DNA from: a virus
Taxonomy: Duplodnaviria > Heunggongvirae > Uroviricota > Caudoviricetes
Strand: one strand, 5' to 3'
Length of the DNA: 64,000 nucleotides
Virus record (IMG/VR): IMGVR_UViG_3300032220_001761
Coordinates: 1,134 to 65,133 of that record
This document shows, piece after piece, positions 27,128 to 62,040 of this stretch (positions are counted from its first letter, which is position 1; every line of letters begins with the position of its first letter). Below the pieces are notes generated by a model. It was not told the origin of the DNA, did no database searches, and worked only from the letters and a program-made list of their open reading frames with translations. The translations under genes and the position numbers were made by a program.

Positions 27128-27129
27128 TT

Positions 27130-28692: not shown

Positions 28693-28736
28693 AAACAAGA
28701 AAATATTAATCAATACTATTTACACTGGAGTGGATA

Positions 28737-28925
28737 ATGGATAAAAAATTAGAATCTGAGTACATCTATTGGGTAAAGAGGCTAAGGCTCGAAGACCTTC
28801 ATACAGAAATGCAAAATATAGAGTGGGGGATTCAAAATATAAAATCCGAAAAAACTTTAGAAAATGTCCTTGTCAAAAAAGGAATACTCGAAAAAGAATA
28901 CGAAACAAGAAATAACAAGAAATAA
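28737..28925 (+). CDS. hypothetical small protein
   Basis: 62-aa ORF. Confidence 0.3.
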   Translation: MDKKLESEYIYWVKRLRLEDLHTEMQNIEWGIQNIKSEKTLENVLVKKGILEKEYETRNNKK

Positions 28926-28926
28926 A

Positions 28927-29418
28927 ATGGAAAAAAATAGCAAATACTATTTCTTCTATAAAACAAGGCATCCATTTTCCAATTGGCATCCATGTTCATT
29001 TGAAGACAAAGAAGGAAATCAATACACTTGCTCAGAGCAATACATGATGGCTCAGAAAGCTTTACTCTTTGGAGATAAAGAAATATTTGAAGAAATCATG
29101 GACGAACCGGATCCAAAATTTCAAAAAGAATTGGGAAGGAAGGTTAAAGGGTTCGATTCTAAGATATGGAACGATAATGCGAAAAGAATAGTTTATGAAG
29201 GATGTAAGCTTAAATTTGAACAAAATGAAAAGTTACTAAAAGTATTACTTGATACAAAAGGAACTTTTCTAGTAGAGGCTTCTCCATATGATAGAATCTG
29301 GGGTATAGGTCTTGGAGAAGACGATCCAGCAATACACGATCCTGCTAATTGGAATGGATTGAATTGGCTAGGTGAAGTTCTTACCGACTTAAGAGATGAC
29401 ATAATTAATAATCAATAA
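28927..29418 (+). CDS. NADAR-domain (YbiA-like) N-glycosidase / ADP-ribosyl glycohydrolase
   Basis: FSNWHPCSF...YTCSEQYMMAQKALLFGD...LGRKVKGFD...KFEQNEKLLKVLLDTKGTFLVEASPYDRIWGIGL matches the NADAR/YbiA family. Start set to Met at 28927, immediately after the preceding stop. Confidence 0.65.
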   Translation: MEKNSKYYFFYKTRHPFSNWHPCSFEDKEGNQYTCSEQYMMAQKALLFGDKEIFEEIMDEPDPKFQKELGRKVKGFDSKIWNDNAKRIVYEGCKLKFEQNEKLLKVLLDTKGTFLVEASPYDRIWGIGLGEDDPAIHDPANWNGLNWLGEVLTDLRDDIINNQ

Positions 29419-29430
29419 AAACAAAACAAA

Positions 29431-30993
29431 ATGTTCAAACCAAACAGTTTATTCTACAGCGACGGCTATAAGATTGGCCACAAAAAAATGCTTGCTAAAG
29501 GAACTTCTCGTCTTTATGGTACATGGATTCCTAGAAGCATTAAGCATGCTCCTAAAGGTGTTAAGAAAATCCTTTCATTCGGACAACAACTTGCAATGAA
29601 ATGGCTTCATGATGAATTTTCAGAAAACTTTTTTAAACTATCCAAAGAAGATGCAATGCAATTCGGAAATGATATGTCATTGTATCTTGGTATGGATTAT
29701 GATGCTTCGCACTTTGAAGCTCTTCATGATCTAGGATATCTTCCAATTCGTGTAAAATCTTTACCAGAGGGGATCGAGACTTTACCAAATATCCCTCATA
29801 TGACATTCATTAACACTCTTGATGGATTTGCTTGGCTTACTCTTTATCTTGAAACTATCATTTCTTCACTTTCTTGGAAGCCTTCAACTTCGGCAACCAT
29901 TGCATTACAATACAAAAGAAACGTGGTTGAATGGGTAATGAAAACGGATCCAGCAAATTCTTTCCTCATTCCTTTTCTTTGCCATGATTTTTCTGCTAGG
30001 GGATTAAGTCCTTGGGATATGTTATCAAGCGGTCTAGGACACGCTACATCATTTCTAGGATCTGATACAATCATTTGTATCCCAGGAGCACGTTACTTCT
30101 ATAACGAGCCTAATGACCAAGTTGCAATCTACTCTGTAAATGCTTCTGAACACTCCGTATCGACAACTAAGATTTTTACAGTTGGTGAACAACAAATGAT
30201 AGCGGATTGGTTGGTAGATTTTCCTAAAGGTATCTTATCAATTGTATCTGATACTTTTGACCTTTGGAAGTTAATCACCGAGTACTTACCAGCAAATAAA
30301 GAAGCTATCATGGCTCGTGACGGTAAGTTAGTTATTCGTCCCGATTCTGGTGATCCTGTTGATATTATTTGTGGAATCAATACAAGGAATGATCCTGATA
30401 ATCGTTACGTTAAATTAGCTGGTACTCCTGAATACAAAGGAGTAATTGAATTACTTTGGGACATCTTCGGTGGCACAACCAATGAACAGGGTTACAAAGT
30501 ACTAGATCCTCATATCGGAGCAATCTATGGGGATTCAATTAATTTGGATCGTCAAATTCAAATCTATGAAAGATTGGAAGCTAAAGGTTTTGCTGCAACT
30601 AACATTGTTTTAGGAGTAGGATCTTTTACGTACCAAATGAACACTAGAGATACTTTTGGTTTTGCAGCTAAAGGAGCTTGGTTCGAGGTTAAAGAAGAGA
30701 TTGGTCAAACAGTTGATACATTACAGCCAATTTACAAATACACTGGATTTGATATTTTTAAGGATCCTGTAACAGATGATGGTACTAAAAAATCTCTAAA
30801 AGGTATGGTTGCTGTATTTGAAAATGACGGAGACCATTATGTTAAGATTCAATGTACACAGGAAGAAGAGGAAACAGGATTACTACAAGTTATCTATGAA
30901 AATGGTAATTTTTATAACCAATCTTCATTAACTGAGATTAGAGCAAAAATCAATGAGCTTTGTAACGAAAAAGTTCTTGAAACAGAAATTTAA
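29431..30993 (+). CDS. nicotinamide phosphoribosyltransferase (NAMPT/NadV) family protein. Candidate nicotinamide-ADPR transferase (Namat)
   Basis: N-terminal SDGYKIGHKKM...GTSRLYGTWIPRS (TDSYK..H...YP.T...ys.R) and overall 520-aa NAMPT-like length. Confidence 0.8.
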   Translation: MFKPNSLFYSDGYKIGHKKMLAKGTSRLYGTWIPRSIKHAPKGVKKILSFGQQLAMKWLHDEFSENFFKLSKEDAMQFGNDMSLYLGMDYDASHFEALHDLGYLPIRVKSLPEGIETLPNIPHMTFINTLDGFAWLTLYLETIISSLSWKPSTSATIALQYKRNVVEWVMKTDPANSFLIPFLCHDFSARGLSPWDMLSSGLGHATSFLGSDTIICIPGARYFYNEPNDQVAIYSVNASEHSVSTTKIFTVGEQQMIADWLVDFPKGILSIVSDTFDLWKLITEYLPANKEAIMARDGKLVIRPDSGDPVDIICGINTRNDPDNRYVKLAGTPEYKGVIELLWDIFGGTTNEQGYKVLDPHIGAIYGDSINLDRQIQIYERLEAKGFAATNIVLGVGSFTYQMNTRDTFGFAAKGAWFEVKEEIGQTVDTLQPIYKYTGFDIFKDPVTDDGTKKSLKGMVAVFENDGDHYVKIQCTQEEEETGLLQVIYENGNFYNQSSLTEIRAKINELCNEKVLETEI

Positions 30994-33416: not shown

Positions 33417-34343
33417 ATGAATGATTTAAAATTTTTGAATACTGCCTTCGTAATAAAAAAGGACAGTAAAACAGGTGGGAACGGAACTATTACCTATATG
33501 GATTTAGAAATGTCACCATCTTCCGACAGGGTTGAAACCTGGGGACTTACAGAAGCAGGGGAAGCCCCACACGAACTTAGAATGGTTACTAGATCTAAAT
33601 TTTTTGAGCTTCAAAGATTTCAGGTAAAGTCGACATACCCTTCAGAACTTATATCTGATCTTAATTATTACCACGGAGTAGATGGTAATTCTATGATTGA
33701 TGAGGCATTGAATAATGAGATGGATCAATCTCTCATTAAAAATCTATACAAAAAATACAGTGAGATTGGAGAAATAACAAGGGTATCCCAATATACAAAA
33801 TGGCAAAAGTTCATTCTTAAAATCTCCCCTAAAATGATTTTTACCAATTATATTAAAGAGGATAGAAATGGATCTGAAATGCTCTATAATAAGATTGTGG
33901 TAGAAGCTAATAAGATAGCATCTAGAACAAGAATAAAACCAGGAGATTTTATTGTATGTGGTTCACTAGTAGGGTCTTTATTACAGGATCACCCAGGATT
34001 TTCATTCGAGTCATTAAATAACTCGATCTCTATGAAAACACCTAGCATAGACTATGTTGGAAACATTGCAGGAAGAATAGCTGTTTATGTTAATGCAAAT
34101 GAAAAGTTTAGTGATGGATGGGTAATTATAGGCAGAAAAACAAACACACATGAAACTGGTGTCTATTTTATTTATGAGGACAGAGAAAAAATTCAACTAG
34201 CGGATATAGATCCATCAAAAAATAAATTTGGTATAACACAAAGAGCTGCAATAGTTGATACCCACGGGGCAGAAAAATCATTTTCAAAAATACACTTCAC
34301 AGTGGGTAAAAAACCATTCTGGAAAAAACTTTTTAATATTTAA
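33417..34343 (+). CDS. hypothetical protein
   Basis: 308-aa ORF, 1 bp after the upstream stop. Confidence 0.5.
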   Translation: MNDLKFLNTAFVIKKDSKTGGNGTITYMDLEMSPSSDRVETWGLTEAGEAPHELRMVTRSKFFELQRFQVKSTYPSELISDLNYYHGVDGNSMIDEALNNEMDQSLIKNLYKKYSEIGEITRVSQYTKWQKFILKISPKMIFTNYIKEDRNGSEMLYNKIVVEANKIASRTRIKPGDFIVCGSLVGSLLQDHPGFSFESLNNSISMKTPSIDYVGNIAGRIAVYVNANEKFSDGWVIIGRKTNTHETGVYFIYEDREKIQLADIDPSKNKFGITQRAAIVDTHGAEKSFSKIHFTVGKKPFWKKLFNI

Positions 34344-44935: not shown

Positions 44936-45031
44936 TTTTTTTATTTTTAAACTGGTTTCTTATTAATATAGGGTGAAACCTTGCCCTTTGTTTTTACTTA
45001 AAGAATTTTATATAGTTTCAATATATAAGAT

Positions 45032-45690: not shown

Positions 45691-45865
45691 GACAAATGAA
45701 GAGCACCTCGAAGAGATTCTACACCATGCCCATCAGTTAGGAATAGTGAAGGAGTTAGAAAGTAGGATACCGGCAAATGTAAAATACCCCGATCTTTCAA
45801 CAGTTTATCTCCGCGAGATGCTCAAGATTGTAAAGGAAAAGAATCTTACCTATTCATCAGATTAA
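45689..45865 (+). CDS. hypothetical small protein (58 aa, below ORF-track cutoff)
   Basis: ATG at 45689 to TAA at 45863 in an otherwise empty gap. Charged/helical composition. Confidence 0.3.
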   Translation: MTNEEHLEEILHHAHQLGIVKELESRIPANVKYPDLSTVYLREMLKIVKEKNLTYSSD

Positions 45866-46645
45866 CGATTTAATCTCAGATAAGATTTCTCTGAACCTTG
45901 GAATTTCTTTAATCCCCTCCTTATATGCAAGACCTTCTTCTAAGAGGTCATAAGTTTTTACAACAGTACTTCCTGTGTTGTCCTTGTTAGCCAATACAAA
46001 TACAGTGTCCGCAATTGCACAAGAGGATTCAATATCGTGGGATACAACCACTAAGGTATTCATCTCATCTAGATTTGATACCTTAACTAGCAGATCAACA
46101 ACCTTGTCCTTCATTATCGTATCTAATCCAGAAAATGGTTCATCCAAAAGAATAAACTTGTTCCCTGCTAGAACCTGCTGTAGAATAGAAACTCTCTGTC
46201 TCTGTCCTCCTGAAAGATCACATGGGTATTTTTCAAGTTGATCGGATAGCTCAAAATGCTCTGCATATTGATTGATGATGTCAGTTTTTTCTTTACCCTT
46301 AAGGCTGGTTAAAGCTAGGGAAAGGTTTGACATAATAGTTCGATGGTTAAATAAAGGGTAGTCTTGAGGAACCACTCCCATCTCTCCGGTTTTAACATCG
46401 TGCTGGTCTTCACCTACCTTAATCTCTCCGGATGTGGATTTATTGTAACCAGATAGCAATTTGAATAAGGATGTTTTACCACATCCGCTTCTTCCACATA
46501 TTGCTATAATCTGTCCTTGAGTAAATCCAGGTCTTGTAACGTTATGGACCTGCATATTGATATCCCTTAGGATTGGTCTCTCATCGTAAGTAAGACTTAC
46601 ATTATTTACAGAGAGGATCAACTGTTCTTTTTTGTAATCGATCAT
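45857..46645 (-). CDS. ABC transporter ATP-binding protein (SsuB/TauB-like)
   Basis: Walker A GRSGCGKTS, signature LSGGQRQRVSIL, Walker B FILLDEPFSGLD, H-loop VVVSHD. Confidence 0.85.
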   Translation of the reverse strand: MIDYKKEQLILSVNNVSLTYDERPILRDINMQVHNVTRPGFTQGQIIAICGRSGCGKTSLFKLLSGYNKSTSGEIKVGEDQHDVKTGEMGVVPQDYPLFNHRTIMSNLSLALTSLKGKEKTDIINQYAEHFELSDQLEKYPCDLSGGQRQRVSILQQVLAGNKFILLDEPFSGLDTIMKDKVVDLLVKVSNLDEMNTLVVVSHDIESSCAIADTVFVLANKDNTGSTVVKTYDLLEEGLAYKEGIKEIPRFREILSEIKSLI

Positions 46646-47454
46646 TTTCTCAAAATTTTATTGATCCATAAATTATTGTATCTCTTAGTATCTGTATAAG
46701 GGAAGATCCAAACTTTCATTACGTCGAATAGGTAATCGAATATAATACCCAGTGCGAGAATAACTATCAAGACTCCAAATACATCGTCGATCTTTAGATA
46801 CTTATTTGATTTGATCATCATTGTACCTAGTCCTCCTTCAGACATACAAATCCCTTCTACTGAGGTTATCATCATCCAGGCGATAGCAAAATTCTGTCTG
46901 ATAACTTCCAGTACTAAATGGAGCTTACCTCGGATAACCACTTCATAAAGTGTTTTCCATGTGTTGAATTTAAGAGAATAGCAAAGCTCATATTCTTTTT
47001 TTGGTATATCCTCTATGTAAGATAATAGAGATGTAACAAAGTATGGTATAATACCAAATAGGAGCAGTGAAATCTTAATATCGCTTCCGTCCTGGATAAG
47101 TATAGTGAATACAAATAAAAGTCCCGTATAAGTCAAAAAACGAAGCTTAGAGACAAATACTGTTATTCCTTTAAATGCAGGTATTAATGAAAGGTATACT
47201 AGCAAAAGGGAAATTGATATGGATATTAGCATCCCCTTTAAAATTAGTCCCAGAGTTGCAAAGAAGTTATCCAAGAATCCTGCTCCTGTAATAATATTCC
47301 AAGATGAATTTAATATACCGAGAGGCTTAGGAACTAATTCATTCCCGTTTATCTGAGCTAGGAATACGAATAGTGTAATTTGGATTGCTGCAATAATCAG
47401 CATTGTCCTTACACTTATGTTTGTTAAAAATAGAGGTGAAAATATCTTTTTCAT
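46642..47454 (-). CDS. ABC transporter permease (SsuC/TauC-like)
   Basis: Six hydrophobic segments, 270 aa. 4-bp overlap with the ATPase gene. Confidence 0.6.
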   Translation of the reverse strand: MKKIFSPLFLTNISVRTMLIIAAIQITLFVFLAQINGNELVPKPLGILNSSWNIITGAGFLDNFFATLGLILKGMLISISISLLLVYLSLIPAFKGITVFVSKLRFLTYTGLLFVFTILIQDGSDIKISLLLFGIIPYFVTSLLSYIEDIPKKEYELCYSLKFNTWKTLYEVVIRGKLHLVLEVIRQNFAIAWMMITSVEGICMSEGGLGTMMIKSNKYLKIDDVFGVLIVILALGIIFDYLFDVMKVWIFPYTDTKRYNNLWINKILRK

Positions 47455-47469
47455 TTTCTTTTTTAAAAA

Positions 47470-47499
47470 GAAGGACTATCCAGTTAAGAATAGTCCTTC
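47470..47499. terminator. 10-bp perfect hairpin GAAGGACTAT/ATAGTCCTTC between the binding-protein gene and the permease gene. Possible internal terminator/attenuator
   Basis: Read directly. Flanked by T-runs on both strands (TTTTTAAAAAAG on the minus strand). Confidence 0.45.
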
Positions 47500-47510
47500 A
47501 GATTATTTTA

Positions 47511-49286
47511 TTATTGACCTAAGATTGAGATTTCCACTCTTCGGTTTTGAGCTCTTCCTGATGCGCTCGAGTTATCAGCAATCGGATTTGAAGATCCGTA
47601 TCCTTTAGACTCTAGACGTGTAGGGGTCAATCCTTTTTCTTTTAGGTAGTTCAATACTGACAAAGCTCTTTGCTCTGATAGATTCATATTAGATGATTCG
47701 TTACCTACATTATCAGTATAACCTCCAATAAGGATCTTAGTACCATCTGCAGTTACAGCATCTTGGAAAATTTGATCTAATACATCTTTAGAAGATTCAG
47801 AGATTTGTGCAGATCCAGTAACGAATTCTATATGGTAAGATTTATTACCAATTTTATTGGTCATCTTAGTATTAGAGTAATCTGTCAAATTGATTTTACC
47901 TTTCAATAGATCCGGGTTATTCGCAACTACTGACATTAGTACAGATTTATCAAAAGCCTTAGTGTAGTCCAAGTACGAAGGTAAATCCTTAGAGTAATAC
48001 TTAGATTGTAGAGTACCAAAAGTGTTATAGATAGATTTGTAGATGTCAATGTTATCAGTTTTACCCTCTACATAGATACCTAACATATTAGCCATATCAC
48101 CTAAGTTAAATACCATTGAACCTCCTAAGTGTGTGTCCTCGTCAGCTTTGATACCATTGTAGTAATCGTACCAGTATTTCCCATTTTGCTCATCGTAGAT
48201 TTTAGCATTCAATTCACAAGCAAATTTCTTAGCATCATCGAAAGAACGAATTTGATCGCCTGCAATAGCAGCATCTTTTGTAATTTCTTCAGCTTCTGTG
48301 CGGTGATCATTTAACCACTTACGACATGTAATGGTAATGTTAGGCATAATTGAAGAATATTCCTTAGTGGAAATAATTGTTACACCGCCACGTCCATTAT
48401 GTGCATTAACGTCTCCAGGCGTCCATGTTGCAACTAGATCTGCTGTGACAGTAGTATCACGACCAATTGTTTTACCGTTCTTAACAATGTGACGTGATTC
48501 TTTATAGCCTGAGTTATATTTAACTACCGCATCCAAGAAATCTTTACAATACATGAAGTTAAGAGCCTCTGGGTCATATGTTGTCTCGTCTACGTTAACC
48601 TTAACCCCGTTGTCTCCTGCTAATTTAAGAGCTAAGTCAAGGTCACCGTCCATACGATATCCAACAATAGTTGCTCCTTTGAGATTTTGTTTATTGTCCT
48701 TATATTTTCGGTCTCCAATAACTTGGTCTTCTCCGTAAGATTTACCAGTTGTCAAGAAAGCTACAGGTTGATATTCAGGGCCTAAATCTTTAACAGCATT
48801 AGAGATACCTGTAATATAAGCTGGAATACCAGATCCCATGAAGGTAATAAATACGCCAGGAGTTTTAGGATTTTCCTTGTATTCTTTACAGAACTTAACT
48901 AGTTCTGCACAAGATTGAGCGCAATCGTCTTGGCGAATAAGGCTAATATCCAATCCAGAGCGATCAAATAATGATCCTTTAGTTGTTTGTTTACCTCCGT
49001 TTGCATAAGCCATCCCGTTTTGAGATTGCCAAGCCATGATGTACCAGTTGATTTTAGTACCTCCGTTGTTTGCAGGAGCTTCTGAAGGTAGACTCAATTT
49101 GATAGCTGCGTTTCCAGAAAGGGAAGCTTCAGGAGAGTCTGGAATTGCCACTTGACCGAAGGTTTTTGAATCCTCAACATCATGAGGTCGTTTATCCCAC
49201 CAAAATACTTTAAGTGAGAAAGCTAAAGCTACTGCGAATAGTCCGATTACGACTTTACCGCTTGTTTTCAATTTTACATTTGCCAT
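47511..49286 (-). CDS. membrane-anchored periplasmic solute-binding-like protein fused to a C-terminal OmpA/MotB peptidoglycan-binding domain
   Basis: N-terminal TM helix. About 400-aa middle domain. C-terminal OmpA-family block ILIGGYTDNVGNESSNMNLSEQRALSVLNYL...NRRVEISI. Confidence 0.65.
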   Translation of the reverse strand: MANVKLKTSGKVVIGLFAVALAFSLKVFWWDKRPHDVEDSKTFGQVAIPDSPEASLSGNAAIKLSLPSEAPANNGGTKINWYIMAWQSQNGMAYANGGKQTTKGSLFDRSGLDISLIRQDDCAQSCAELVKFCKEYKENPKTPGVFITFMGSGIPAYITGISNAVKDLGPEYQPVAFLTTGKSYGEDQVIGDRKYKDNKQNLKGATIVGYRMDGDLDLALKLAGDNGVKVNVDETTYDPEALNFMYCKDFLDAVVKYNSGYKESRHIVKNGKTIGRDTTVTADLVATWTPGDVNAHNGRGGVTIISTKEYSSIMPNITITCRKWLNDHRTEAEEITKDAAIAGDQIRSFDDAKKFACELNAKIYDEQNGKYWYDYYNGIKADEDTHLGGSMVFNLGDMANMLGIYVEGKTDNIDIYKSIYNTFGTLQSKYYSKDLPSYLDYTKAFDKSVLMSVVANNPDLLKGKINLTDYSNTKMTNKIGNKSYHIEFVTGSAQISESSKDVLDQIFQDAVTADGTKILIGGYTDNVGNESSNMNLSEQRALSVLNYLKEKGLTPTRLESKGYGSSNPIADNSSASGRAQNRRVEISILGQ

Positions 49287-51152: not shown

Positions 51153-51752
51153 TTAAGCTATGTCTGATGATAATAATAATGTATAACTAAAATGGTTCCC
51201 GTGGATTTTTTTAGCTTTTTTACAAATAGACATGAATTCATTAAAGTCCTTAACCTTTTTGAACACCTGACACCCTTCACTCCAATTTTCAACATATTCT
51301 GATTCAGTTTTTGGATTAGATCTATGTATGTTTATTCCAAACATACCCTGATCAACCGTAACCTCTTCAAATAACATATCTCTGTTTCTGTCTCTCCAAA
51401 CCTTTACCTCTCCGTTTCTTTGACAAAGAGCTTCATATTTTCCTTGGTGTAGATCTATAGACCAAACCCCTCTATATTGCCCAGGGATTAATCTAGCAAC
51501 ACCATTGGGGTTATGGAATTCTTTAACAGCTTTAGTTCCAGGATCTGTAGTGCACGACCAGCAATATGATTCCCACATATTGTTAACCTTGTAGCTAATC
51601 GTCATCCAGTCATCAAAAACATTAGTAACCTTTTTTTCAGTTGAATGGTTTCTTATTCCTACGATATTAACATCATAATCTAATGGGCTATCAAACCACG
51701 CATAGCCTTTTTTTCTGACTGCATTTTCTATTTGTTCTCTTGTAAAGTTCAT
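51153..51752 (-). CDS. putative cell-wall-active enzyme (L,D-transpeptidase/YkuD-like His-Cys fold?). Lysis-cassette member
   Basis: INIHRSNPKTESEYVENWSEGCQVF resembles the YkuD catalytic HG...S.GC[IV]R block. Immediately downstream of the GH19 endolysin. Confidence 0.35.
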   Translation of the reverse strand: MNFTREQIENAVRKKGYAWFDSPLDYDVNIVGIRNHSTEKKVTNVFDDWMTISYKVNNMWESYCWSCTTDPGTKAVKEFHNPNGVARLIPGQYRGVWSIDLHQGKYEALCQRNGEVKVWRDRNRDMLFEEVTVDQGMFGINIHRSNPKTESEYVENWSEGCQVFKKVKDFNEFMSICKKAKKIHGNHFSYTLLLSSDIA

Positions 51753-51757
51753 ATTGA

Positions 51758-52585
51758 TTACTTAAGTAAAGAATAATACTCGTTGAAGTGCTTTATTCTG
51801 TCAGGTAAACCTATAGTACCACCGTTAACTCTCTTAGTAACTGCGGTAACGGTTGCTTCGTCTGCACCCTTGTCACAAATAGACCAAAGTCCGTTATTAT
51901 TGAAAAAGAAAGCTGCTGACATTAGAGGGTATTTAGTAGCAACAAGATCAGGATTTGCTAAGATATCCTCATCTACCATTTTATCAAAAGCAGAATAGTT
52001 AGATTTTCCTGTTAATTGGATATAGCCTCTACCTCTGAATTTATAACCTTCACCTGAAGCCTCGTCACCATTACCCATCCTGGACGAATAAACACGATTA
52101 GCAATTTTCTCAGGCTGTCTTGCATACGATTCGTTTAGATTACCTGGAAAATATTTAGGGAATATCTTCTTTAATCCGTCTGATGAATAATTAAGATTCT
52201 CACTAATTGCTTTGAAACCTCCTGATTCATGACCACACTGTGCTAAAAAGTGTGCTAGTCTTAGTGTATTAGTGATATTGAATTTTTTTGCAGTGTCAGG
52301 GATCTGAGCGATAACTGCATCTGGGATGTGACCCTTGAGTTTATCTAATTTGAAAACTGATGTGTCGAAGACACTTTCAGAGACACTTTGTCCTTGAGCG
52401 GGTGAGCTAAACATTTTAGCCCAAGTTGCAGCACCAACAATACCATCTGCGGTTAGACCATTTGCAGACTGCCACTGTTTAACTGCTTTTTCAGTTCCTG
52501 GACCGAAACTTCCGTCGGCTCCAATTCCTAATTTTTGTTGAAGTTTTTTTACATCCTCTCCGGATGAACCAATTTTTAATAGCAT
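51758..52585 (-). CDS. endolysin: N-terminal peptidoglycan-binding domain plus GH19 glycoside hydrolase
   Basis: PG_binding_1-like DVKKLQQKLGIGADGSFGPGTEKAVKQWQSANGLTADGIVGAATWAKM. GH19 blocks LAHFLAQCGHESGGF and YKFRGRGYIQLTGKSNY. Confidence 0.8.
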   Translation of the reverse strand: MLLKIGSSGEDVKKLQQKLGIGADGSFGPGTEKAVKQWQSANGLTADGIVGAATWAKMFSSPAQGQSVSESVFDTSVFKLDKLKGHIPDAVIAQIPDTAKKFNITNTLRLAHFLAQCGHESGGFKAISENLNYSSDGLKKIFPKYFPGNLNESYARQPEKIANRVYSSRMGNGDEASGEGYKFRGRGYIQLTGKSNYSAFDKMVDEDILANPDLVATKYPLMSAAFFFNNNGLWSICDKGADEATVTAVTKRVNGGTIGLPDRIKHFNEYYSLLK

Positions 52586-52627
52586 AGGGATATATTTTTA
52601 AATATATATCCCCTAATCTTGGTGTAT

Positions 52628-52870
52628 TTACCTATATTCTACGATTTGTATTTCTATCGTATCTCCCTTTTTATATTCCCTGTAAACTGGAAATATTCTA
52701 CCACAAGAATATACTCGCCATCTTTTTCTCATTATCTCGTCATGGACAGAAATCACAGGAACCACTTCGCATGAATCTATTGCACATTTAACTACAGTAA
52801 CATTCTTCTCCATATTGTTACACGAGGAGAGTACTAATAAAATCGATCCTAAAAAAATTACGTTTTTCAT
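52628..52870 (-). CDS. small lipoprotein (spanin candidate)
   Basis: Lipobox LLVLSSC after signal peptide. Adjacent to the endolysin. Confidence 0.45.
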   Translation of the reverse strand: MKNVIFLGSILLVLSSCNNMEKNVTVVKCAIDSCEVVPVISVHDEIMRKRWRVYSCGRIFPVYREYKKGDTIEIQIVEYR

Positions 52871-53085
52871 ATTGTTGGTTTAAAGCATCTCATATAAACT
52901 TCTATTCTTTCTTCTGATATACTAAGACAAAAATTTAATTGGACTTCTGGATTTCCTTTAGGGTGGCTTTTTCTGATTGAATCATATAATTCCTTTCTTC
53001 TTGGGTCGGTTATTGAGGTCATGAATATTTTACCAAGAAATCCTATGATTGTTTCTCTTTTGCGTATTCTATAATATCCTTGCAT
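52867..53085 (-). CDS. hypothetical small protein
   Basis: 72-aa ORF, 4-bp overlap. Confidence 0.35.
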   Translation of the reverse strand: MQGYYRIRKRETIIGFLGKIFMTSITDPRRKELYDSIRKSHPKGNPEVQLNFCLSISEERIEVYMRCFKPTI

Positions 53086-53765
53086 TTATTTGGATAGAAA
53101 ATTTCTATCCAGGTTCTAGCCATTTTTTTATATAAAGGAGCATCTTCGTCCTCACCCCAATAATTCTTTCCCGAGATCAATGTAAAACACTCTCCGAAGC
53201 TAGATTTATTTGCATCCTTATTTTTTGACCAAGATTCATAATCTGAGTGAAATTTACTAATTACAAATCTAAACATCTTGGTTATTGGAATTACACTGCT
53301 GTACCCAATATCACCATTTTTCTTCCTATAGTAACTGATTGAATATCTTCTCCAGCTTGGATTGTATCTTTCGTCTTCTGGATAATTCCAGCCTTTATCT
53401 TTAGGCTCGATTTTAATCATCCAATTAAAAATATAGATGCTCTTTGATCTTTTCTTTTTCTTTATTTGACCTAACTGGTAGTAGTGTTGCCAAGAATCTA
53501 GTGCATAAGGAGTTCCTGATACTGAGCACTTTTCTATTACCTCAGAAGCAACCCCAAAATTTATCCCCTTAGGGGGATGTGTAAAGATATCACCATCCTC
53601 TATCCAAGTACATCTTAGATTATTAGCTATACAATATTTATTTACACATTGATATCCATCCTTCATTGACGGATCTCCATTAGGATTTGAAACATGTTCA
53701 CTAAGATCCTGGTACCTTTCTCTGTGGGTTACCTCTAAAGGTTTTTCACAACATGGACATCTCAT
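53043..53765 (-). CDS. hypothetical protein with N-terminal CxxC pair
   Basis: MRCPCCEKPLEVTHRE start. Trp/Tyr-rich. Confidence 0.45.
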   Translation of the reverse strand: MRCPCCEKPLEVTHRERYQDLSEHVSNPNGDPSMKDGYQCVNKYCIANNLRCTWIEDGDIFTHPPKGINFGVASEVIEKCSVSGTPYALDSWQHYYQLGQIKKKKRSKSIYIFNWMIKIEPKDKGWNYPEDERYNPSWRRYSISYYRKKNGDIGYSSVIPITKMFRFVISKFHSDYESWSKNKDANKSSFGECFTLISGKNYWGEDEDAPLYKKMARTWIEIFYPNKCKDIIEYAKEKQS

Positions 53766-53812
53766 ATTTAATCTTTTTCACAAGATTAAATAGATTTTTC
53801 CAGATAAAAAAA

Positions 53813-54394
53813 TTATTCAGGTTTTTTATTACTCTCAGAGGCATATTTAACCCCCATGATAGTACCGACTATAGAAAAAGCATTTGTTAAAAGTATACCA
53901 AACATATTACTCCAGGTAGATCCTATTATTTGTGTATCCTTCCCTGTTATCATTGCGATAGAATACATAATAGTAGTAATAACACCAACACCCAATATTA
54001 CTAAAAGAGCAACTTTTACTATTGTCCCTATTAATTCTGTTTGTGTCTTTTTTTGTATAATATCTAAATCGTTTAATGCAATATCTTTTGCCGCTAAAGC
54101 TTCGTTTTTAGAATCTTCCGCTTCTTGAAGTGCGGCTTTAAGCTCTTCGTTTATTCTTAAATTCTCATCTTCTGAAGCTTGTAATTCACGGTTTCTTTCC
54201 TGTACTTGCTTTGTAATTTCAAGTCTTTTCTTTCTGCTTTCTTTATCCTTTTCTATGGAAGTTGAAAGATATGCTTTAAATTCATTATCCCCATCTTCAG
54301 CTTCGATTAGCTTCAATATATTACCCTCTAATCCTATTCTTTTATTTTTCTGGATCTCAAGTAAGCAATCTCGGACTTCTTTACTAACTTTCAT
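53813..54394 (-). CDS. coiled-coil protein with two C-terminal TM helices
   Basis: Long helical N-part, then VKVALLVILGVGVITTIMYSIAMI and FGILLTNAFSIVGTIMGV. Confidence 0.45.
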   Translation of the reverse strand: MKVSKEVRDCLLEIQKNKRIGLEGNILKLIEAEDGDNEFKAYLSTSIEKDKESRKKRLEITKQVQERNRELQASEDENLRINEELKAALQEAEDSKNEALAAKDIALNDLDIIQKKTQTELIGTIVKVALLVILGVGVITTIMYSIAMITGKDTQIIGSTWSNMFGILLTNAFSIVGTIMGVKYASESNKKPE

Positions 54395-54825
54395 TATTTG
54401 TAAATTTTAAAAGGATTAGTTCTATTTTTATACCCAGGAAAATCTTTTCTGAATTCTTCTAATCTAGGTTCAATATCATCAGATTTTATAATCCAAAATT
54501 GAGCTCCTGATTTAACTGCTTTTGCTTGTTCTTCCGGCTCGTTAGACGAAGAAATAATCCCAATAACAACATTATTACCATAATCGAAATTTATTTTTCT
54601 AACCAGTTCTATCCCATCATAAGAAGAACCTATTATATTCAAATCAACAAATACACATTCGGGTTTACCGTTTGAATTTTTTTGCCACCCTTCAAAAAGT
54701 TTAGCAGCCTCATCAGAGCTGTCAAGGCTTTCAAGAGAAAGTGAAATATCAAGAAGACTACAAGCATCTTCAAATACGAGGTGAAATAGACTTTCGTCAT
54801 CCACTAATAAAATAGAATCAATCAT
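54394..54825 (-). CDS. stand-alone response-regulator receiver (REC) domain protein
   Basis: ILLVDDESL, acidic pocket, phospho-acceptor context CVFVDLNIIG, no output domain. Confidence 0.7.
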   Translation of the reverse strand: MIDSILLVDDESLFHLVFEDACSLLDISLSLESLDSSDEAAKLFEGWQKNSNGKPECVFVDLNIIGSSYDGIELVRKINFDYGNNVVIGIISSSNEPEEQAKAVKSGAQFWIIKSDDIEPRLEEFRKDFPGYKNRTNPFKIYK

Positions 54826-56947
54826 TTTTTAGGTTTATTTTTATTTGACTTCCAATATCTGGAAGTTTATCGCAAGAAACACTGAACCCGTGTTCTTCGA
54901 GTATAGCTATACATATGTTTAATCCCAAACCTGTTCCAGACTCTTTTTGCCCTTCTTTACGTGTATATGGTTGTGAAAGTATTTTAAATTCCTCTGAGCT
55001 TAGACCTCTACCATTATCCTCAATGTATAATGTATCATCATTCCTATAGATTTTTACAATCTTATTATTACTATCATTATATTTTAAACCGTTTCTAATT
55101 AAGTTATCTAATGCTGTACAAAAAAGAGCTTCATTTACGCTTAATTCCCCTAGTTCTAATAGATTAACCTGTGGTCTATATGCAGTTGCAGATAAGTAGT
55201 CTTCGAGAATGTCGTTAAGTTTACACTCAGATCTATTAAGAACTACGTCTTTTTTTACAAGATTGGTAAATTCATATACCCCTTTATAAACCTTCTGCGT
55301 ATGTCTAAGTCCTTCCTTAATCATTTTTATAGGGGCTTCAATTTTAAGATCCTTTACTTGGTCATCTGATAATCTTCTATCCAAAGAGCTCAATCCACGA
55401 GGCATATAAGTATTAATCCCACTGTGCATGTCATGTCTAAGAATCTTAGCAGCATGTTCAAGATAGGTATTTTTCTTTTCTATCTCTTTTTGTTGATTAA
55501 AATTTTCAGTAATATCGGTAGCAATTTTCATTATCCGATAAGGTTTTCCGTCATTTCCTATAATAGGATTGTAAGTTGCTTGAAGATAAATTAGTGTACC
55601 ATCTTTTTTCCTTCTTGTGATTTCTCCTCTAAAGAATGTTCCTTCTCTTAGGGATTTCCAAAAATCTTTATATTCATCGCTATCTTTTAATGAATTTTCT
55701 ACAAATAAGCTGTGGTGCTTTCCAACAATTTCATCATGAGAATATCCCAAGGTATCTAAAAAAGCATTATTTGCAAATTTTATATTACCATCTAGATCAA
55801 ATTCAATAACAGCATTCGATCTATTAATGGCGTTCATTCTGTTAGATATTTCAACCTCTTTTCTTTTTAATTCTGTTACGTCTTGTCTTATAGAAGAGAA
55901 TCCAATAAGTTTATCATTATTAAATTTAGCTTTTATAAAAGTGTCAACGTAATATAAACTCCCGTCTTTAGCTTTATTTACACAAACTGAATTCCAGATT
56001 TTTTTATCTTTTATTACAGTTTTGTACATATTAGTCCAAAACTCTTTAGGGTGTGTACCCGAGTTTACTATGTTATGATCCTTTCCAATAACATCTTCTA
56101 ATGTATACCCAGAAACATCGGTAAATCTTTGGTTTACATAAGTTATTTTACCATTTTTGTCTGCAACTGAAATAATAGAAGAAGCATCTAAGAATTTATC
56201 ATTCTCTATCATTTGCTCAGATAAAAAATTAGATTCTTTAACAGAAAATCCAAATGAATATAATGAAGAGATCATTTGTAAATAAGAAATCTCTAGAACT
56301 TTCCATTCTCTTTGTGTTAGATTTTCAATACATATAACACCTATTAAAGATCCCTTATAATATATTGGGATATCAAGCATTGATTTTATACCGAGGGGCC
56401 TAAGATAAGAATCAGTAAAGCATGATGTTGCAATATGAGTTTCCGCATCATTTGCAACGATTATTGGATCATTTTCTAATGCTTCGAAATATTGATAAAA
56501 ATCTTTTTTAAAAATCTCAATCCCATTATAAAATTTATTCTCTCCTCTTACATAAAGTTGATCGCAGATAATAGATTCTTTATTTTCCGAATAAAGCCAT
56601 ACTGAAACCCTATCAGTTTCAGTAACCATTGATATTTCCCTTGTGATTAATTTTGCAGAACCAGATATATCACCAACATAAAAGCATTCACTTCTAGACT
56701 GCCATATAAGGGAGGAATTTAATTCAAATGTGTATTTATTTTCCTTGATCGATTCCTTGCTTTTTTTGATAAAATCTTTCATTATCAGCCAGAAAAGTGG
56801 TACAAATGAAAGGAAGCACAGATACTCTATCCCTCTAGTATTTGGGGTTGACGGTACTATCTCAAATAGTACTGAGGTCTTTACTAAAAAAAACACTAGC
56901 ATAATAGCTAGCGCAAGACCAAATAGAAGATTAGATCTCTTTAGCAT
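54818..56947 (-). CDS. sensor histidine kinase with N-terminal TM segments and PAS-like repeats
   Basis: H-box ILRHDMHSGINTY, N/G boxes NLIRNGLKY, IEDNGRGL, GTGLGLNICIAILEEHG. Repeated PAS-like blocks (GKITYVNQRFTDVSGYTLEDVIGK..; GNIKFANNAFLDTLGYSHDEIVGK..). Confidence 0.8.
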   Translation of the reverse strand: MLKRSNLLFGLALAIMLVFFLVKTSVLFEIVPSTPNTRGIEYLCFLSFVPLFWLIMKDFIKKSKESIKENKYTFELNSSLIWQSRSECFYVGDISGSAKLITREISMVTETDRVSVWLYSENKESIICDQLYVRGENKFYNGIEIFKKDFYQYFEALENDPIIVANDAETHIATSCFTDSYLRPLGIKSMLDIPIYYKGSLIGVICIENLTQREWKVLEISYLQMISSLYSFGFSVKESNFLSEQMIENDKFLDASSIISVADKNGKITYVNQRFTDVSGYTLEDVIGKDHNIVNSGTHPKEFWTNMYKTVIKDKKIWNSVCVNKAKDGSLYYVDTFIKAKFNNDKLIGFSSIRQDVTELKRKEVEISNRMNAINRSNAVIEFDLDGNIKFANNAFLDTLGYSHDEIVGKHHSLFVENSLKDSDEYKDFWKSLREGTFFRGEITRRKKDGTLIYLQATYNPIIGNDGKPYRIMKIATDITENFNQQKEIEKKNTYLEHAAKILRHDMHSGINTYMPRGLSSLDRRLSDDQVKDLKIEAPIKMIKEGLRHTQKVYKGVYEFTNLVKKDVVLNRSECKLNDILEDYLSATAYRPQVNLLELGELSVNEALFCTALDNLIRNGLKYNDSNNKIVKIYRNDDTLYIEDNGRGLSSEEFKILSQPYTRKEGQKESGTGLGLNICIAILEEHGFSVSCDKLPDIGSQIKINLKND

Positions 56948-56988
56948 TACAAGTTTATAGAAATATATATTCCTATAATGCTAGGTAA

Positions 56989-57420
56989 TCAAGTGAAACT
57001 TTTAATTTCTTTAGATAATTCTCTTTCTTTTATTGAATTTCTTTTATCGTAATTCTTTTTACCTTTAGCAAGGGAAACCTTCAATTTAATTTTACCTCTT
57101 TCATTAGAAAATATCAGTGTTGGGACTATCGTAATTCCTTGATCTAATCCTCTTTCCAATTTGTTAAGTTCCTTTCTTTTAAGTAAAAGCTTTCTTACCC
57201 TTAAAGGATCAGGTGAAAAATCTCCCATGGGAGATATGTTTAATCCCTTTATGTAAAGCTCGTTTTTTTCTAAATAACAAAAAGCATCCACCATAGATAC
57301 TTTACCTGCTGCTATCGATTTTACTTCGGATCCAAATAATTGGATGCCAGCTGTGTATTCTTCGATAAAGAAATAATCGAAAGAAGCTTTTCTATTTTTT
57401 ATGTGTATATTCTTAGGCAC
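56989..57420 (-). CDS. smpB: SsrA-binding protein SmpB
   Basis: Near-collinear with bacterial SmpB: NRKASFDYFFIEEYTAGIQLFGSEVKS..AGK, RVRKLLLKRKEL, GKIKLKVSLAKGKKNYDKR and basic C-terminal tail. Confidence 0.85.
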   Translation of the reverse strand: MPKNIHIKNRKASFDYFFIEEYTAGIQLFGSEVKSIAAGKVSMVDAFCYLEKNELYIKGLNISPMGDFSPDPLRVRKLLLKRKELNKLERGLDQGITIVPTLIFSNERGKIKLKVSLAKGKKNYDKRNSIKERELSKEIKSFT

Positions 57421-57778
57421 TTACTGAAAAATAAATTATTTTAGGAAAATCCCCAAATACAAATTTAGTCACATCGCAAAGCCACATATCTAGATTAAAG
57501 TGTGATATTCCCTTATACGAGTCTAATCTATACCAAGCTCCTTCTCCGAGTTCCCATCCCTCAAGTCTACCTAATTCTTTTATTTTCAGATTGTCTGATC
57601 CTTCAAAATACTCATCAGAAAGAACTACATGCACTTCCGCTTCTCCCTCAGCTAGTATATCTAAAAAAGAATCCGCTCCTGCAACCATTTGAAGTTCTGC
57701 TTTAGTACCTTCCCACTCTGGTAGATCTACATACCAATTTCCATTCGTCTCTTTGTAAAATCTAAATCTTCTTGTCAT
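57413..57778 (-). CDS. hypothetical protein
   Basis: 121-aa ORF. Confidence 0.45.
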   Translation of the reverse strand: MTRRFRFYKETNGNWYVDLPEWEGTKAELQMVAGADSFLDILAEGEAEVHVVLSDEYFEGSDNLKIKELGRLEGWELGEGAWYRLDSYKGISHFNLDMWLCDVTKFVFGDFPKIIYFSVSA

Positions 57779-58578
57779 ATTTTTATTTTTAAAGCCTCGT
57801 CATAATCTTCCCAAAGACAATCAATAAAGTAGTGATTAACTCCTTTACACCAATCTGTTTTAATACCTCTTTGAGGTGTATGACCAACAACCTGATTTAT
57901 CCCTTCTAATGGATATTCATTGAAAACCCTAGGTCTTACCCAAACCGGACCAGCCCATAGGTCAAATCCCCCACTCTGTGCATCAACATTAAAAAGAATA
58001 TCAAGTCTCATTTCTAATGCTGTATTAAGAAGATCACAAAGATCTAGTTCTTTTAGAATGTCATAGAATCTGTGGTTTGGATTATAAACTTCTTTTCTTA
58101 ACTCAGTAAGCCATCCACTTGTAACCCCTGCGTGTGTCCATAACCATTGCTGTCCATCATCACCAACCTCATAGTGTGCTAATTTGAAACCTGCTTCTTT
58201 ATCCGTATAGATATCAAGAAGATCATGTTTCATCTCTGGCCTGAATCCGCTACATATTTCATTTTCTATAAAATATTGAACATCATGATTTCCAATAAGA
58301 AGCTCCACTCTATTCGGAACCATTTTTTTAAAGAAAACTATATCTCTTAGATTATTTAAAATAACATCGTTTTTTAGATCATAGCTGTCTGCATAATCAC
58401 CAACGAAAATAATCTTGTCATATTTCATATAGGGATAATCATCCCAAAAAGTATCATCACCAGGAGCACCATTTTCCACTGCAGTCTTCCACAGGTTAAA
58501 TTCATATGGACTTCCATGTGTATGGAACATCCAACGATCTCTTCCGTGTATATCTCCCAGTGTTAATATCATTTTCAT
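57775..58578 (-). CDS. calcineurin-like metallophosphoesterase
   Basis: LGDIHGR, FVGDYAD, IGNHD, VGHTP motifs. Confidence 0.65.
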   Translation of the reverse strand: MKMILTLGDIHGRDRWMFHTHGSPYEFNLWKTAVENGAPGDDTFWDDYPYMKYDKIIFVGDYADSYDLKNDVILNNLRDIVFFKKMVPNRVELLIGNHDVQYFIENEICSGFRPEMKHDLLDIYTDKEAGFKLAHYEVGDDGQQWLWTHAGVTSGWLTELRKEVYNPNHRFYDILKELDLCDLLNTALEMRLDILFNVDAQSGGFDLWAGPVWVRPRVFNEYPLEGINQVVGHTPQRGIKTDWCKGVNHYFIDCLWEDYDEALKIKI

Positions 58579-58615
58579 CTTTCCGTAAAATTAATAGAAA
58601 AATCCAAATAAAAAA

Positions 58616-59089
58616 TTAAATATCGACGTTTAATTTCTTAAATAGATGCTCAGGCATGGATCTTTTAATAATCTGATCCTCCGTTGTTGGCCAGTATCCT
58701 AGAACTTTTAGCATGTTTAGAAGCACTCTTTCATTTGCAGTCTCCACCTTAAAGTTTCCGTGATGGAAGATAGAAGTAACAGTTGCAAGTGCCCAATCCT
58801 TCATAGAATTAGTTGAGTTTTGCTCCCCTTGAACTCTTCCAAGAATACTTATATTCATTAAAGCACTCTTTAGTTTCTCCTTATCGTCACCGATGATTTC
58901 AATGATTTCGTCTACAAGAACATCCATTATTTGTTCGTGCATTAGATCCCCCTGATATCCTCCATGTCGTAATTCAGATTCCAATTGAGCATATCTCAAT
59001 GCGTACTTTAGAGCATCATTATTTTTCATGCTTAATTTTTTTATTGTTTTTATCCCTACACTCTTTACAAAGCTGATAGACCCATCCAT
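58616..59089 (-). CDS. hypothetical protein (start probably the internal Met near 59029)
   Basis: 157-aa ORF. The N-terminal 20 codons overlap the next gene. Confidence 0.4.
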   Translation of the reverse strand: MDGSISFVKSVGIKTIKKLSMKNNDALKYALRYAQLESELRHGGYQGDLMHEQIMDVLVDEIIEIIGDDKEKLKSALMNISILGRVQGEQNSTNSMKDWALATVTSIFHHGNFKVETANERVLLNMLKVLGYWPTTEDQIIKRSMPEHLFKKLNVDI

Positions 59090-59471
59090 AATTTACAGAC
59101 TTAACTGATTGATTGGATCCGCACTTCTCGCATGTATTGTTACATTTTTTTTCGGCCTCCGATATCACGTTCCCTATATCCTGACCAAAAAATCCATAAA
59201 TCCTTAAAGTAGCATACTTATCCTTTATGTCTGTAATTATTTGGCCTTTGGTTAATTTTTCTCTGATCTTATACCAAAACTTACTTTTAACCTTAACAAC
59301 AGAGTTATCAGTGGCCAAATAATGAATTTTTCTTTTCAAAAACATAGGTATCCAAGAAGGCCACATTTCCTTCTCTATTTTAATTATAGCTTCCTCAACT
59401 ATAGGAACCCATCCTTTAGGAACCCCTGGATAAGAGTATCCAATGTGTCTATATTTCTCTGATATCTTCAT
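59019..59471 (-). CDS. hypothetical protein with C-terminal zinc-ribbon-like CxxC...CxxC
   Basis: CEKCGSNQSVKSVNYGWVYQLCKEC. Confidence 0.45.
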   Translation of the reverse strand: MKISEKYRHIGYSYPGVPKGWVPIVEEAIIKIEKEMWPSWIPMFLKRKIHYLATDNSVVKVKSKFWYKIREKLTKGQIITDIKDKYATLRIYGFFGQDIGNVISEAEKKCNNTCEKCGSNQSVKSVNYGWVYQLCKECRDKNNKKIKHEK

Positions 59472-61973: not shown

Positions 61974-62040
61974 CCATTATATATTTAGATGAGCGCGTAT
62001 TAAGCAGTAAAAAATTCTTTATTAAATTATTAACAAATAA

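Follow-up and report, generated by a model that had tools for sequence, protein, structure and literature searches.

A conserved trio of genes encoding a kinase, a receiver and a membrane protein

We analysed a 64,000 nucleotide (nt) stretch of viral DNA (IMG/VR record IMGVR_UViG_3300032220_001761, positions 1,134 to 65,133), hereafter called the window. Our focus is a group of three genes encoding a sensor histidine kinase, a stand-alone receiver and a small membrane protein, which we name G3. The kinase gene (54818..56947, minus strand) encodes 709 amino acids (aa). These are organised as two transmembrane (TM) helices followed by GAF, PAS1, PAS2, DHp and CA domains, with matches in both Pfam and NCBIfam. 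The receiver gene (54394..54825, minus strand) encodes 143 aa and overlaps the kinase gene by 8 base pairs (bp), with the sequence ATGATTGA. A preliminary description of this DNA had reported both open reading frames (ORFs), and their coordinates, strand, lengths and 8-bp overlap are all as claimed. However, while the kinase and receiver were correctly recognised as a pair, the third gene was overlooked. This gene, G3 (53813..54394, minus strand), encodes 193 aa. Its start codon shares 1 nt with the stop codon of the receiver gene (TAATG).

The three genes remain together in related DNA. Thus, the order kinase-receiver-G3 was found in 20 of 20 loci fetched via the kinase (related loci are numbered with the prefix L). 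Across these loci the receiver is the best conserved protein, with 72-94% identity compared to 44-89% for the kinase. The receiver stop and G3 start overlap by 1 nt at 16 of the 20, and are separated by 5 nt or less at the others. More widely, 29 related loci have sequence that extends far enough, and G3 is found after the receiver in every one, including phage contigs of 591 kb and 617 kb. Loci with the trio span 25-48% GC, and include receivers down to 31-48% identity. Our most distant sample consisted of five distant receiver relatives, at six loci (L025-L030). Here, a G3 homolog comes after the receiver wherever the sequence continues (E 1e-72 to 6e-8), and always has two C-terminal TM helices. 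The kinase precedes the receiver in all except L025. There, G3 remains with the receiver although the 333 bp of contig preceding the receiver contain no kinase, which makes the link between receiver and G3 the tightest in the trio.

Codon analysis was used to estimate the ratio of nonsynonymous to synonymous substitution rates (dN/dS). Values were 0.06-0.18 for the kinase, 0.02-0.07 for the receiver and 0.10-0.25 for G3, all of which are approximate because dS is saturated. The kinase, the receiver and G3 are under strong purifying selection.

The kinase has a conserved catalytic core and variable sensor domains

Conservation within the kinase was determined using 30 diverse members of its family, in which over 120 clusters have at least 60% identity. 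A hydropathy scan placed the two TM helices at residues 13-31 and 42-60 (56768..56911, minus strand), where they would serve as a membrane anchor. The region is poorly conserved across the family. Since the helices are only ~10 residues apart, there is no periplasmic sensor domain and all sensor domains are predicted to be cytoplasmic. The first of these is a GAF domain (residues 98-229; 56261..56656, minus strand; PF01590 E=1.3e-13). Pfam then detects two PAS domains, with E values down to 5e-24: PAS1 (residues 246-356; 55880..56212, minus strand) and PAS2 (residues 379-481; 55505..55813, minus strand). The kinase had been credited with at least two PAS-like repeats, which agrees with this result, but the GAF domain had escaped notice.

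The DHp region (55163..55483, minus strand) contains the H-box LRH505DMHSGINTY, in which the H505 codon occupies positions 55433..55435. Conservation of the H-box histidine was set beforehand as a test that could refute the assignment. All 30 kinases have both H505 and D506. No Pfam HisKA-family match was obtained for the DHp region at E<=0.01, and its homology can be seen only with kinase models of full length or with PDB chains. Nevertheless, H505 lines up with the H-box histidine (ASHDIKEPL) of the solved kinase 8F71. Hence, we consider the DHp region to be a divergent HisKA-type domain. The HATPase_c (CA) domain (residues 609-707; 54827..55123, minus strand) was identified by PF02518 (E=8e-13). 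Its N-box (N619), G1 box (D644-N-G646-R-G648) and G2 box (G671-T-G673-L-G675) are all invariant in the family.

The only element of the architecture present in every kinase variant is PAS1-DHp-CA. PAS1 is therefore the constant sensor element. By comparison, the GAF domain is an optional input module, missing from the L003, L004, L005 and L021 kinases, and PAS2 is missing from L006-type kinases. The L003 kinase (L003:10013-11584) is 89% identical to the kinase in the window by one comparison, and 85% over the part they share by another, and lacks the entire GAF domain. Hence, sensor domains appear to be gained or lost over short evolutionary times. At some loci, a second tandem kinase is encoded between the first kinase and the receiver (L011:12366-13805, L015:1992-3368 and L021:6287-7510). 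It has the same DHp-CA core (49-63% identity), preceded by an N-terminal segment of ~180-270 aa with no recognisable domain. This arrangement suggests two inputs feeding one receiver.

The receiver is intact and belongs to an isolated family

By sequence, the receiver is a borderline match to Pfam Response_reg (PF00072; 34.9 bits, where the cutoff is 30.2). The AlphaFold2 model, with a predicted local distance difference test (pLDDT) score of 95.4, has a (beta-alpha)5 fold in which alpha-5 is long and the chain ends in a strand. The best Foldseek matches to this model are receiver domains (probability 1.00). Functional residues are D9, D10, the phospho-acceptor D61 (54643..54645), S92-94, the aromatic W111 and K114. 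The receiver aspartate was part of the same test set beforehand, and most of these positions are conserved: 14 distinct close sequences show no variation at D9, D10, D61, S92-94 or K114. Among relatives at ~30% identity, K114 still does not vary, and conservation of D10 and D61 is 90% or more. The protein also has a conserved C-terminal tail, with the pattern ...RLxxFxxD...FKxY.

An exhaustive comparison with 1.84 billion representative proteins gave 209 matches to the receiver at E<=1e-3. Some 20 of these are full-length relatives of ~140-160 aa, with 27-50% identity, that share the tail motif. No cellular receiver is closer than ~30% identity. The family is, as judged from these comparisons, isolated from cellular receivers. 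One relative, UniProt A0A6J5RMP2, is labelled 'CheY-like receiver [uncultured Caudovirales phage]' and is also in BFVD. It is 84% identical to the receiver in the window. The family has thus already been deposited under an automatic label. We presume that this entry comes from a freshwater phage study (PMC6802176).

Two-component genes were said to be rare in viruses, and our searches agree. Neither the receiver nor G3 had a protein match in 50,697 GenBank phage records. In BFVD, the receiver model has roughly 20 viral matches at E<=1e-3, for the most part hybrid kinases from giant eukaryotic viruses, with a few phage proteins.

PAS1 resembles flavin-type redox sensors

The PAS1-PAS2 region of the kinase matches the tandem PAS domains of MmoS (3EWK) with E=1.3e-25. 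PAS1 also matches 8DIK (E=9e-15) and 2GJ3 (E=1e-11), which correspond to Aer and NifL PAS1, and the NifL model TIGR02938 is a partial match to the kinase. The flavin-contacting residues H53, N85 and R115 of Aer are equivalent to H132, N164 and R195 of MmoS (PMC9668731). In PAS1 of the phage kinase, the equivalent residues are H291 (56075..56077), N324 (55976..55978) and R354 (55886..55888), each invariant in 30 of 30 sequences. Residue G266, equivalent to MmoS G107, is likewise invariant (30/30). The position of Aer T18 and MmoS T103 is occupied by S256, which is Ser in 25 of the 30 sequences and Ala in the other five. Note that the Aer sequence in this residue alignment was partly entered by hand; its numbering reproduces the residues in PMC9668731 and the segments agree with HMMER alignments.

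The likeness to MmoS, NifL and Aer extends beyond individual residues. Thus, PAS1-PAS2 aligns end-to-end with MmoS PAS-A/PAS-B and, in both proteins, the domains are within a histidine kinase. The pocket His, Asn and Arg, together with the Gly, are kept in PAS1 and gone from PAS2. Lacking the flavin-pocket Asn and Arg, PAS2 resembles the cofactor-free MmoS PAS-B. In other respects the phage kinase differs from MmoS. It is membrane-anchored, virus-encoded, has an optional GAF domain, is paired with a receiver-only regulator, and its flavin binding is a prediction. From this pattern of residues, PAS1 probably binds flavin adenine dinucleotide (FAD), and so would sense the redox or respiratory state of the host. 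Furthermore, because the flavin pocket of PAS1 is invariant, and PAS1-DHp-CA is always kept, the constant signal read by the family would be cytoplasmic redox or respiratory state, via FAD. NCBIfam matches to YtvA/LOV prompted us to consider a LOV photoreceptor instead. This was rejected; the PAS1 sequence GKDHNIVNSG has no Cys at the position found in LOV NCRFL.

G3 is a conserved coiled-coil membrane protein

G3 begins with a domain of ~75 aa (LEGNILK...RKRLxITKQVQ), continues as a coiled coil whose length varies, and has two TM helices in its C-terminal part (residues 121-139 and 164-182). The second helix, TM2, has the sequence GILLTNAFSIVGTIMGVKYAS and is nearly invariant. AlphaFold2 predicts a 114-residue helix running into a TM hairpin (pLDDT 76). 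The G3 family comprises 7,441 clusters with no Pfam domain, nearly always labelled 'hypothetical protein'. Comparison of G3 with PHROGs gave, at most, weak coiled-coil noise. A 90-aa ORF (53856..54128, plus strand) lies antisense to G3 and is seemingly conserved in many loci. Most likely, this is not a gene but a by-product, on the other strand, of conservation in the G3 TM region.

The trio is encoded by a virus

Several proteins encoded in the window are viral hallmarks: a Gp23-like capsid protein, a Dda-like helicase, and a GH19 endolysin with a peptidoglycan-binding domain. Also present are two RNA ligases, a thymidylate synthase of the flavin-dependent type, NAMPT and a sigma-70-like factor. 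No tRNA, rRNA or other Rfam-recognised RNA was found in the 64-kb window. The capsid-like protein scores 66 bits against Gp23, and has matches in T4-like phages, Prevotella Lak phages, and huge phages of 462-735 kb. Lake-metagenome contigs, the longest of 190,674 bp, contain an identical kinase sequence, and 16 relatives are IMG/VR viral contigs. The relatives of 591,103 bp and 616,881 bp encode T4 gp13, T4 RNA ligase, DnaK/DnaJ/GrpE and many short ORFs without a Pfam match. Among annotated phages, we found no near-DNA relative of the window. The hallmark genes, and the relatives in IMG/VR, indicate that the DNA is viral, as first described, rather than bacterial chromosome.

Within 185,579 species-representative genomes, the receiver was found on four contigs only, each from a metagenome-assembled genome (MAG), and in no isolate genome. 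The four contigs are assigned to four phyla, and three hold the full trio. The fourth (L024, 2.2 kb) stops inside the receiver gene. We attribute all four to mis-binned phage DNA, because they are scattered over four phyla and because the module is retained in three. Capture of the pair from a host had also been raised. Recent capture is unlikely, given the isolation of the receiver family and the presence of this one module in each context sampled.

A predicted phospho-signalling module and competing explanations

The genes, their domains, catalytic residues and fold, as well as conservation, synteny and viral setting, are observations. From these we infer flavin binding, phosphotransfer, contact between the receiver and G3, and a physiological output. 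On balance, we lean towards a phage-owned, three-gene phospho-signalling module that runs from the kinase to the receiver and then to G3. The kinase would be anchored in the host inner membrane and sense the cytoplasm, with PAS1 and its FAD reporting redox or respiratory state. The GAF domain, PAS2 and, in some relatives, the second tandem kinase would supply extra inputs. The kinase would then autophosphorylate at H505 and hand the phosphate to D61 of the receiver. Transfer from kinase to receiver very probably occurs and, in mechanism, the two proteins would be a conventional two-component phosphotransfer pair. With no output domain, the receiver must act by protein contact. This would most likely be with the co-translated membrane coiled-coil protein, G3. 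Through G3, the phage could tune a membrane- or envelope-linked step of infection, for which lysis timing is the leading, but speculative, candidate.

G3 is the best candidate partner for the receiver because the two genes are strictly adjacent, overlap at their stop and start codons, and remain linked when receivers are only 31-48% identical, also where no kinase is directly upstream. That G3 belongs to the signalling pathway is likely from this gene organisation. We judge the chances to be even that G3 is the direct target of the receiver. Some observations weigh against a route from kinase to receiver to G3. Conserved synteny among related phages can stem from shared ancestry, not function, and the dN/dS values, as noted, are approximate. 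The DHp region escapes the Pfam HisKA families. G3 matches no Pfam or NCBIfam family (sub-threshold chance matches were obtained), nothing in PADLOC, and no PDB structure by Foldseek.

The preliminary description placed the target of the receiver in the host, for instance on a sensor kinase, a phosphorelay or chemotaxis-like machinery. For us, G3 is the obvious first candidate, with host kinases and chemotaxis machinery a second choice. Stand-alone bacterial receivers, such as CheY, DivK, Spo0F and CpdR, typically act on other proteins. The phage receiver, or the kinase, might similarly act on a host kinase, phosphorelay, motility switch or protease adaptor, leaving G3 as a bystander or scaffold. 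A conserved host target would fit with the receiver having the highest conservation among the three proteins. Likewise, the near-invariance of G3 TM2, compared to the variable TM region of the kinase, could mean that G3 touches a conserved component of the host membrane. However, a host target leaves the strict adjacency and translational coupling of the receiver and G3 genes unexplained. Nor is there any sign that the receiver mimics a host regulator, given its distance (~30% identity or less) from all cellular receivers. Matches to homologs in other phages hint that the host is in the Bacteroidota, and such a host has been suggested for similar phages (PMC12619734). If so, there would be no flagellar CheY to target. 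Overall, we regard a host target as improbable.

Alternatively, G3 could act upstream, as an accessory membrane protein that controls the kinase, much as LiaF controls LiaS or BceAB controls BceS, and the receiver would have its target elsewhere. Kinases built with two TM helices and a loop of ~10 residues, as here, often need an accessory membrane protein encoded nearby, and G3 is a membrane protein from the same gene cluster. Conversely, the TM region of the kinase is poorly conserved and G3 TM2 is near-invariant, which disfavours specific contact between the two. In addition, the kinase already holds up to three cytoplasmic sensor domains, the translational coupling of G3 is to the receiver rather than the kinase, and L025 keeps G3 with the receiver where there is no kinase in the 333 bp upstream. 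An upstream role for G3 is thus quite improbable. A further explanation is that the genes are recent passengers from a host, without a role in the phage, or that the contig is bacterial DNA. The four species-representative matches are labelled as bacterial MAGs, and the window has cellular-looking genes, namely ABC transporter parts, an OmpA-like protein and smpB. Against this stand the viral hallmark genes, the relatives in IMG/VR, and the spread of the MAG contigs across four phyla, three with the full trio, when no isolate genome carries the receiver. The strong purifying selection with saturated dS, the occurrence of the family on contigs of 25-48% GC, and the isolation of the receiver from cellular families point the same way. 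Bacterial chromosome, and recent capture from a host, were therefore rejected as largely refuted by the viral hallmarks, the IMG/VR relatives and the pattern of mis-binned MAGs. We give this explanation a very small probability.

Lysis genes near the trio and a possible output

Two genes downstream of G3 could relate to lysis. The closest, 1.2 kb from G3, encodes an endolysin with PG_binding_1 and Glyco_hydro_19 domains (51758..52585, minus strand; phrog_181 E=2e-69). This GH19 endolysin is syntenic in L003 and is encoded upstream of the kinase in L011 and L012. Next is a gene for a putative cell-wall hydrolase of 199 aa (51153..51752, minus strand), which matches phrog_3000 (E=2e-35) and phrog_33083 'endolysin' (E=2e-15). 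The invariant residues of this protein are H102, H143 and S158-x-G-C161. Read by eye, the H...SxGC pattern looks like a YkuD-like catalytic motif. Homologs are found in Bacteroides, crAss-like and Pseudoalteromonas phages, and in huge phages of 634-642 kb. The protein had no Pfam or NCBIfam match and a PDB profile search gave chance matches only. It is probably a member of an uncharacterised endolysin family typical of Bacteroidota phages. The label 'peptidoglycan-binding domain 1', on one crAss-like record, was discounted; it is attached to a 208-aa protein that is not a fusion.

The 199-aa gene, the GH19 endolysin gene, or both, are neighbours of the trio at 14 loci representing five arrangements, including the most distant loci, L027 (25% GC) and L030. 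The two genes are often both present. Against a role for the trio in lysis, around half of the loci have no lysis gene in the available flank, and the 199-aa protein was assigned its enzymatic identity from PHROG labels and visual reading of a motif. Moreover, a search for a holin-endolysin-spanin layout revealed no spanin pair after the 199-aa gene, and L006-type loci have a separate 70-aa ORF with two TM helices that is a more classical holin candidate. Taken together, a lysis or envelope step is a possible, but doubtful, output of the pathway.

We considered whether G3 itself might be a holin. In favour, G3 carries a pair of TM helices plus a short charged tail, and in eight loci it is directly upstream of the 199-aa gene. 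Against this, it has an N-terminal cytoplasmic region of ~120 aa, lacks any match to a holin family, and has other holin-like ORFs nearby. As the search revealed no spanin pair but a further holin-like ORF, we demoted this idea to speculation. A bolder proposal is that the redox-reading two-component system gates envelope disruption, with the receiver docking on G3, and so works as a phosphorylation-controlled lysis clock. We think this unlikely. To our knowledge, no phage is known to use such a regulatory principle. The nearest parallel is lysis inhibition in T4, where RI and RIII act on holin T. This too is a phage-encoded sensing device that tunes lysis via a membrane protein, but the analogy is purely functional. 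There is no homology, the T4 signal is superinfection, phosphorylation is not involved, and a lysis role for the trio is speculative.

Three further genes lie between G3 and the GH19 endolysin gene. They encode a 240-aa protein with a CxxC motif at its start (53043..53765, minus strand), a 72-aa protein (52867..53085, minus strand) and an 80-aa predicted lipoprotein with an LSSC lipobox (52628..52870, minus strand), possibly an o-spanin. The 240-aa and 72-aa proteins had no family match, and the lipoprotein had sub-threshold ones only. Of the three, the lipoprotein alone has homologs in L003 and L011.

Relationship to known systems

For the sensor, the nearest analogues are MmoS, NifL and Aer, described above. 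For the pair, the closest cellular parallels are phytochrome-type systems, such as Cph1-Rcp1, RcpB, Deinococcus BphP-DrRR and RPA3017. In these systems, a kinase with GAF and PAS domains is encoded beside a receiver of ~140-150 aa that has no output domain and a C-terminal extension. Their receivers are among the best full-length structural matches to the phage protein (TM scores 0.63-0.78), and the phage H-box resembles the ASHDLxEPL sequence of phytochrome-type kinases. However, sequence identity is ~20%, no bilin-binding PHY/GAF arrangement is evident in the phage kinase, and neither the family-specific tail motif of the phage receiver nor the conserved third gene has a counterpart. In CheA-CheY and DivJ/PleC-DivK, as here, the receiver alone is the output, and the acidic pocket, phospho-acceptor Asp, Ser/Thr, aromatic switch and Lys are all present in the phage protein. 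Unlike for CheA-CheY, the window has no CheA, CheW, receptor context or other two-component parts. LiaFSR and BceRS-AB share with the phage system a kinase whose two TM helices are joined by a minimal loop, together with a small membrane protein from the same cluster. They differ in that the phage kinase has large cytoplasmic sensors, and G3 is coupled to the receiver and has no LiaF homology. Finally, the hybrid kinases of EsV-1, FirrV-1, Klosneuviruses and Tupanvirus are also virus-encoded receiver and kinase domains but, unlike those in the window, are fused.

In the literature that we searched on phage two-component systems, there was no description of a kinase-receiver-G3 module. Nor is it mentioned in studies of freshwater phages (PMC6802176), huge phages (PMC7162821) or a moraphage (PMC12619734), or in a review of jumbo phages (PMC7824862). 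The cREC domain of jumbo phages was never linked to histidine kinases (PMC7824862). Apparently, the module is undescribed so far. Its novelty lies not in a phage kinase as such, but in a three-gene module kept by an abundant lineage of huge freshwater phages, in which a predicted flavin-PAS kinase is joined by a tailed receiver from a phage-restricted family and by the coiled-coil protein G3. With ~7,400 sequence clusters in public metagenomes, the G3 family shows how widespread the module is.

Phages are usually thought to read host physiology indirectly, through the sensitivity of holins to membrane potential, the host SOS response, or communication by small peptides. A complete phage-owned pathway, from kinase to receiver, would imply that huge phages conduct signal transduction of their own while infecting a cell. 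The predicted module combines exchangeable sensors with a constant, flavin-type redox input and a membrane partner dedicated to it. Two uncharacterised families of proteins emerge from it as well: the tailed stand-alone receiver and G3. Since the three proteins are small enough for heterologous expression, what huge phages sense, and with what output, could be tested without culturing the phage.

smpB and other neighbouring genes

Upstream of the kinase, and on the same strand, are genes for SmpB (56989..57420, minus strand; 143 aa), a DUF6717 protein (57413..57778, minus strand) and a metallophosphoesterase (57775..58578, minus strand). The kinase had been placed immediately after smpB and the metallophosphoesterase gene. 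The order and strand are correct, but a 41-bp spacer (56948..56988, minus strand) separates smpB from the kinase, and the DUF6717 gene, not mentioned previously, sits between smpB and the metallophosphoesterase gene. A tie between smpB and the kinase and receiver, as implied by assigning them to one operon, was not borne out. The adjacency is confined to L017 and L018, which are copies of the phage in the window. In L003, the DUF6717 gene abuts the kinase, leaving no space for smpB. Lysis genes, not smpB, are upstream of the kinase in L011, and the upstream genes in L019 and L020 are unrelated to those in the window. At L006-type loci, a hairpin with a T-run, resembling a terminator, and the AT-rich element AATATTTAT precede the kinase. 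We conclude that smpB is an incidental neighbour, outside the conserved module, and that this non-conserved association carries no functional implication. Transcription may nevertheless read through from smpB into the trio.

The SmpB protein itself is an equivalog-level match to TIGR00086 (154.5 bits, cutoff 119.1), and its C-terminal basic tail, GKKNYDKRNSIKERE, is present as read by eye. No gene for transfer-messenger RNA (tmRNA) was found by ARAGORN or Rfam in the 64-kb window; the remaining genome, of at least 190 kb, is outside this view. Either the phage tmRNA is encoded elsewhere or the tmRNA of the host is used. SmpB has been reported previously in huge phages (PMC7162821).

The spacer between smpB and the kinase holds the palindromic sequence AATATATATT (56962..56971). 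Elements resembling AATAT(A/T)TA are found 20-30 nt 5' of the kinase start in most relatives, including in this spacer. AATATWTA is not enriched in the window, where 22 copies were observed and 25.9 expected. Hence, the AT-rich element upstream of the kinase is a mere hint, and a weak one, that the trio may have its own start signal. Exact copies of AATATATA occur at five places: 56962..56971, 11768..11775, 45020..45027, 52601..52608 and 61978..61985. The copy at 56962..56971 is palindromic and was counted on both strands. All exact copies in the window are intergenic and beside gene starts. The sequence may be a phage promoter or a translation-initiation element. A sigma-70 scan of 52500..59200 was uninformative, with 21 promoter-like sites compared to 32 expected. 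The sole terminator-like match near the kinase start in that scan falls within the kinase coding region.

Other genes in the window are of separate interest. The Gp23-like domain protein (33417..34343, plus strand) has just 308 aa, compared to 521 aa for T4 gp23. Its gene is surrounded by glycosyltransferase and SPFH genes, not by a structural block. The short protein may be a paralogue of the capsid protein or a decoration protein. The sigma-70-like factor (12422..13294, plus strand) has regions 1.2 and 2, and a weak region 4. Homologs are encoded near the trio in L003 and L006-L013, and the phage may redirect transcription itself by means of this factor. NAMPT (520 aa, phrog_448 E=6e-156) and a protein with a phosphoribosyltransferase domain are encoded in 26231..30993 (plus strand). 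By sequence, these genes look like an NAD+ salvage module, and such modules have been reported in other jumbo phages. Lastly, a co-directional block at 45857..49286 (minus strand) encodes an ABC-transporter ATPase of 262 aa, a 270-aa permease and a protein of 591 aa whose C-terminal part is an OmpA domain, which is an unusual cargo for a phage.

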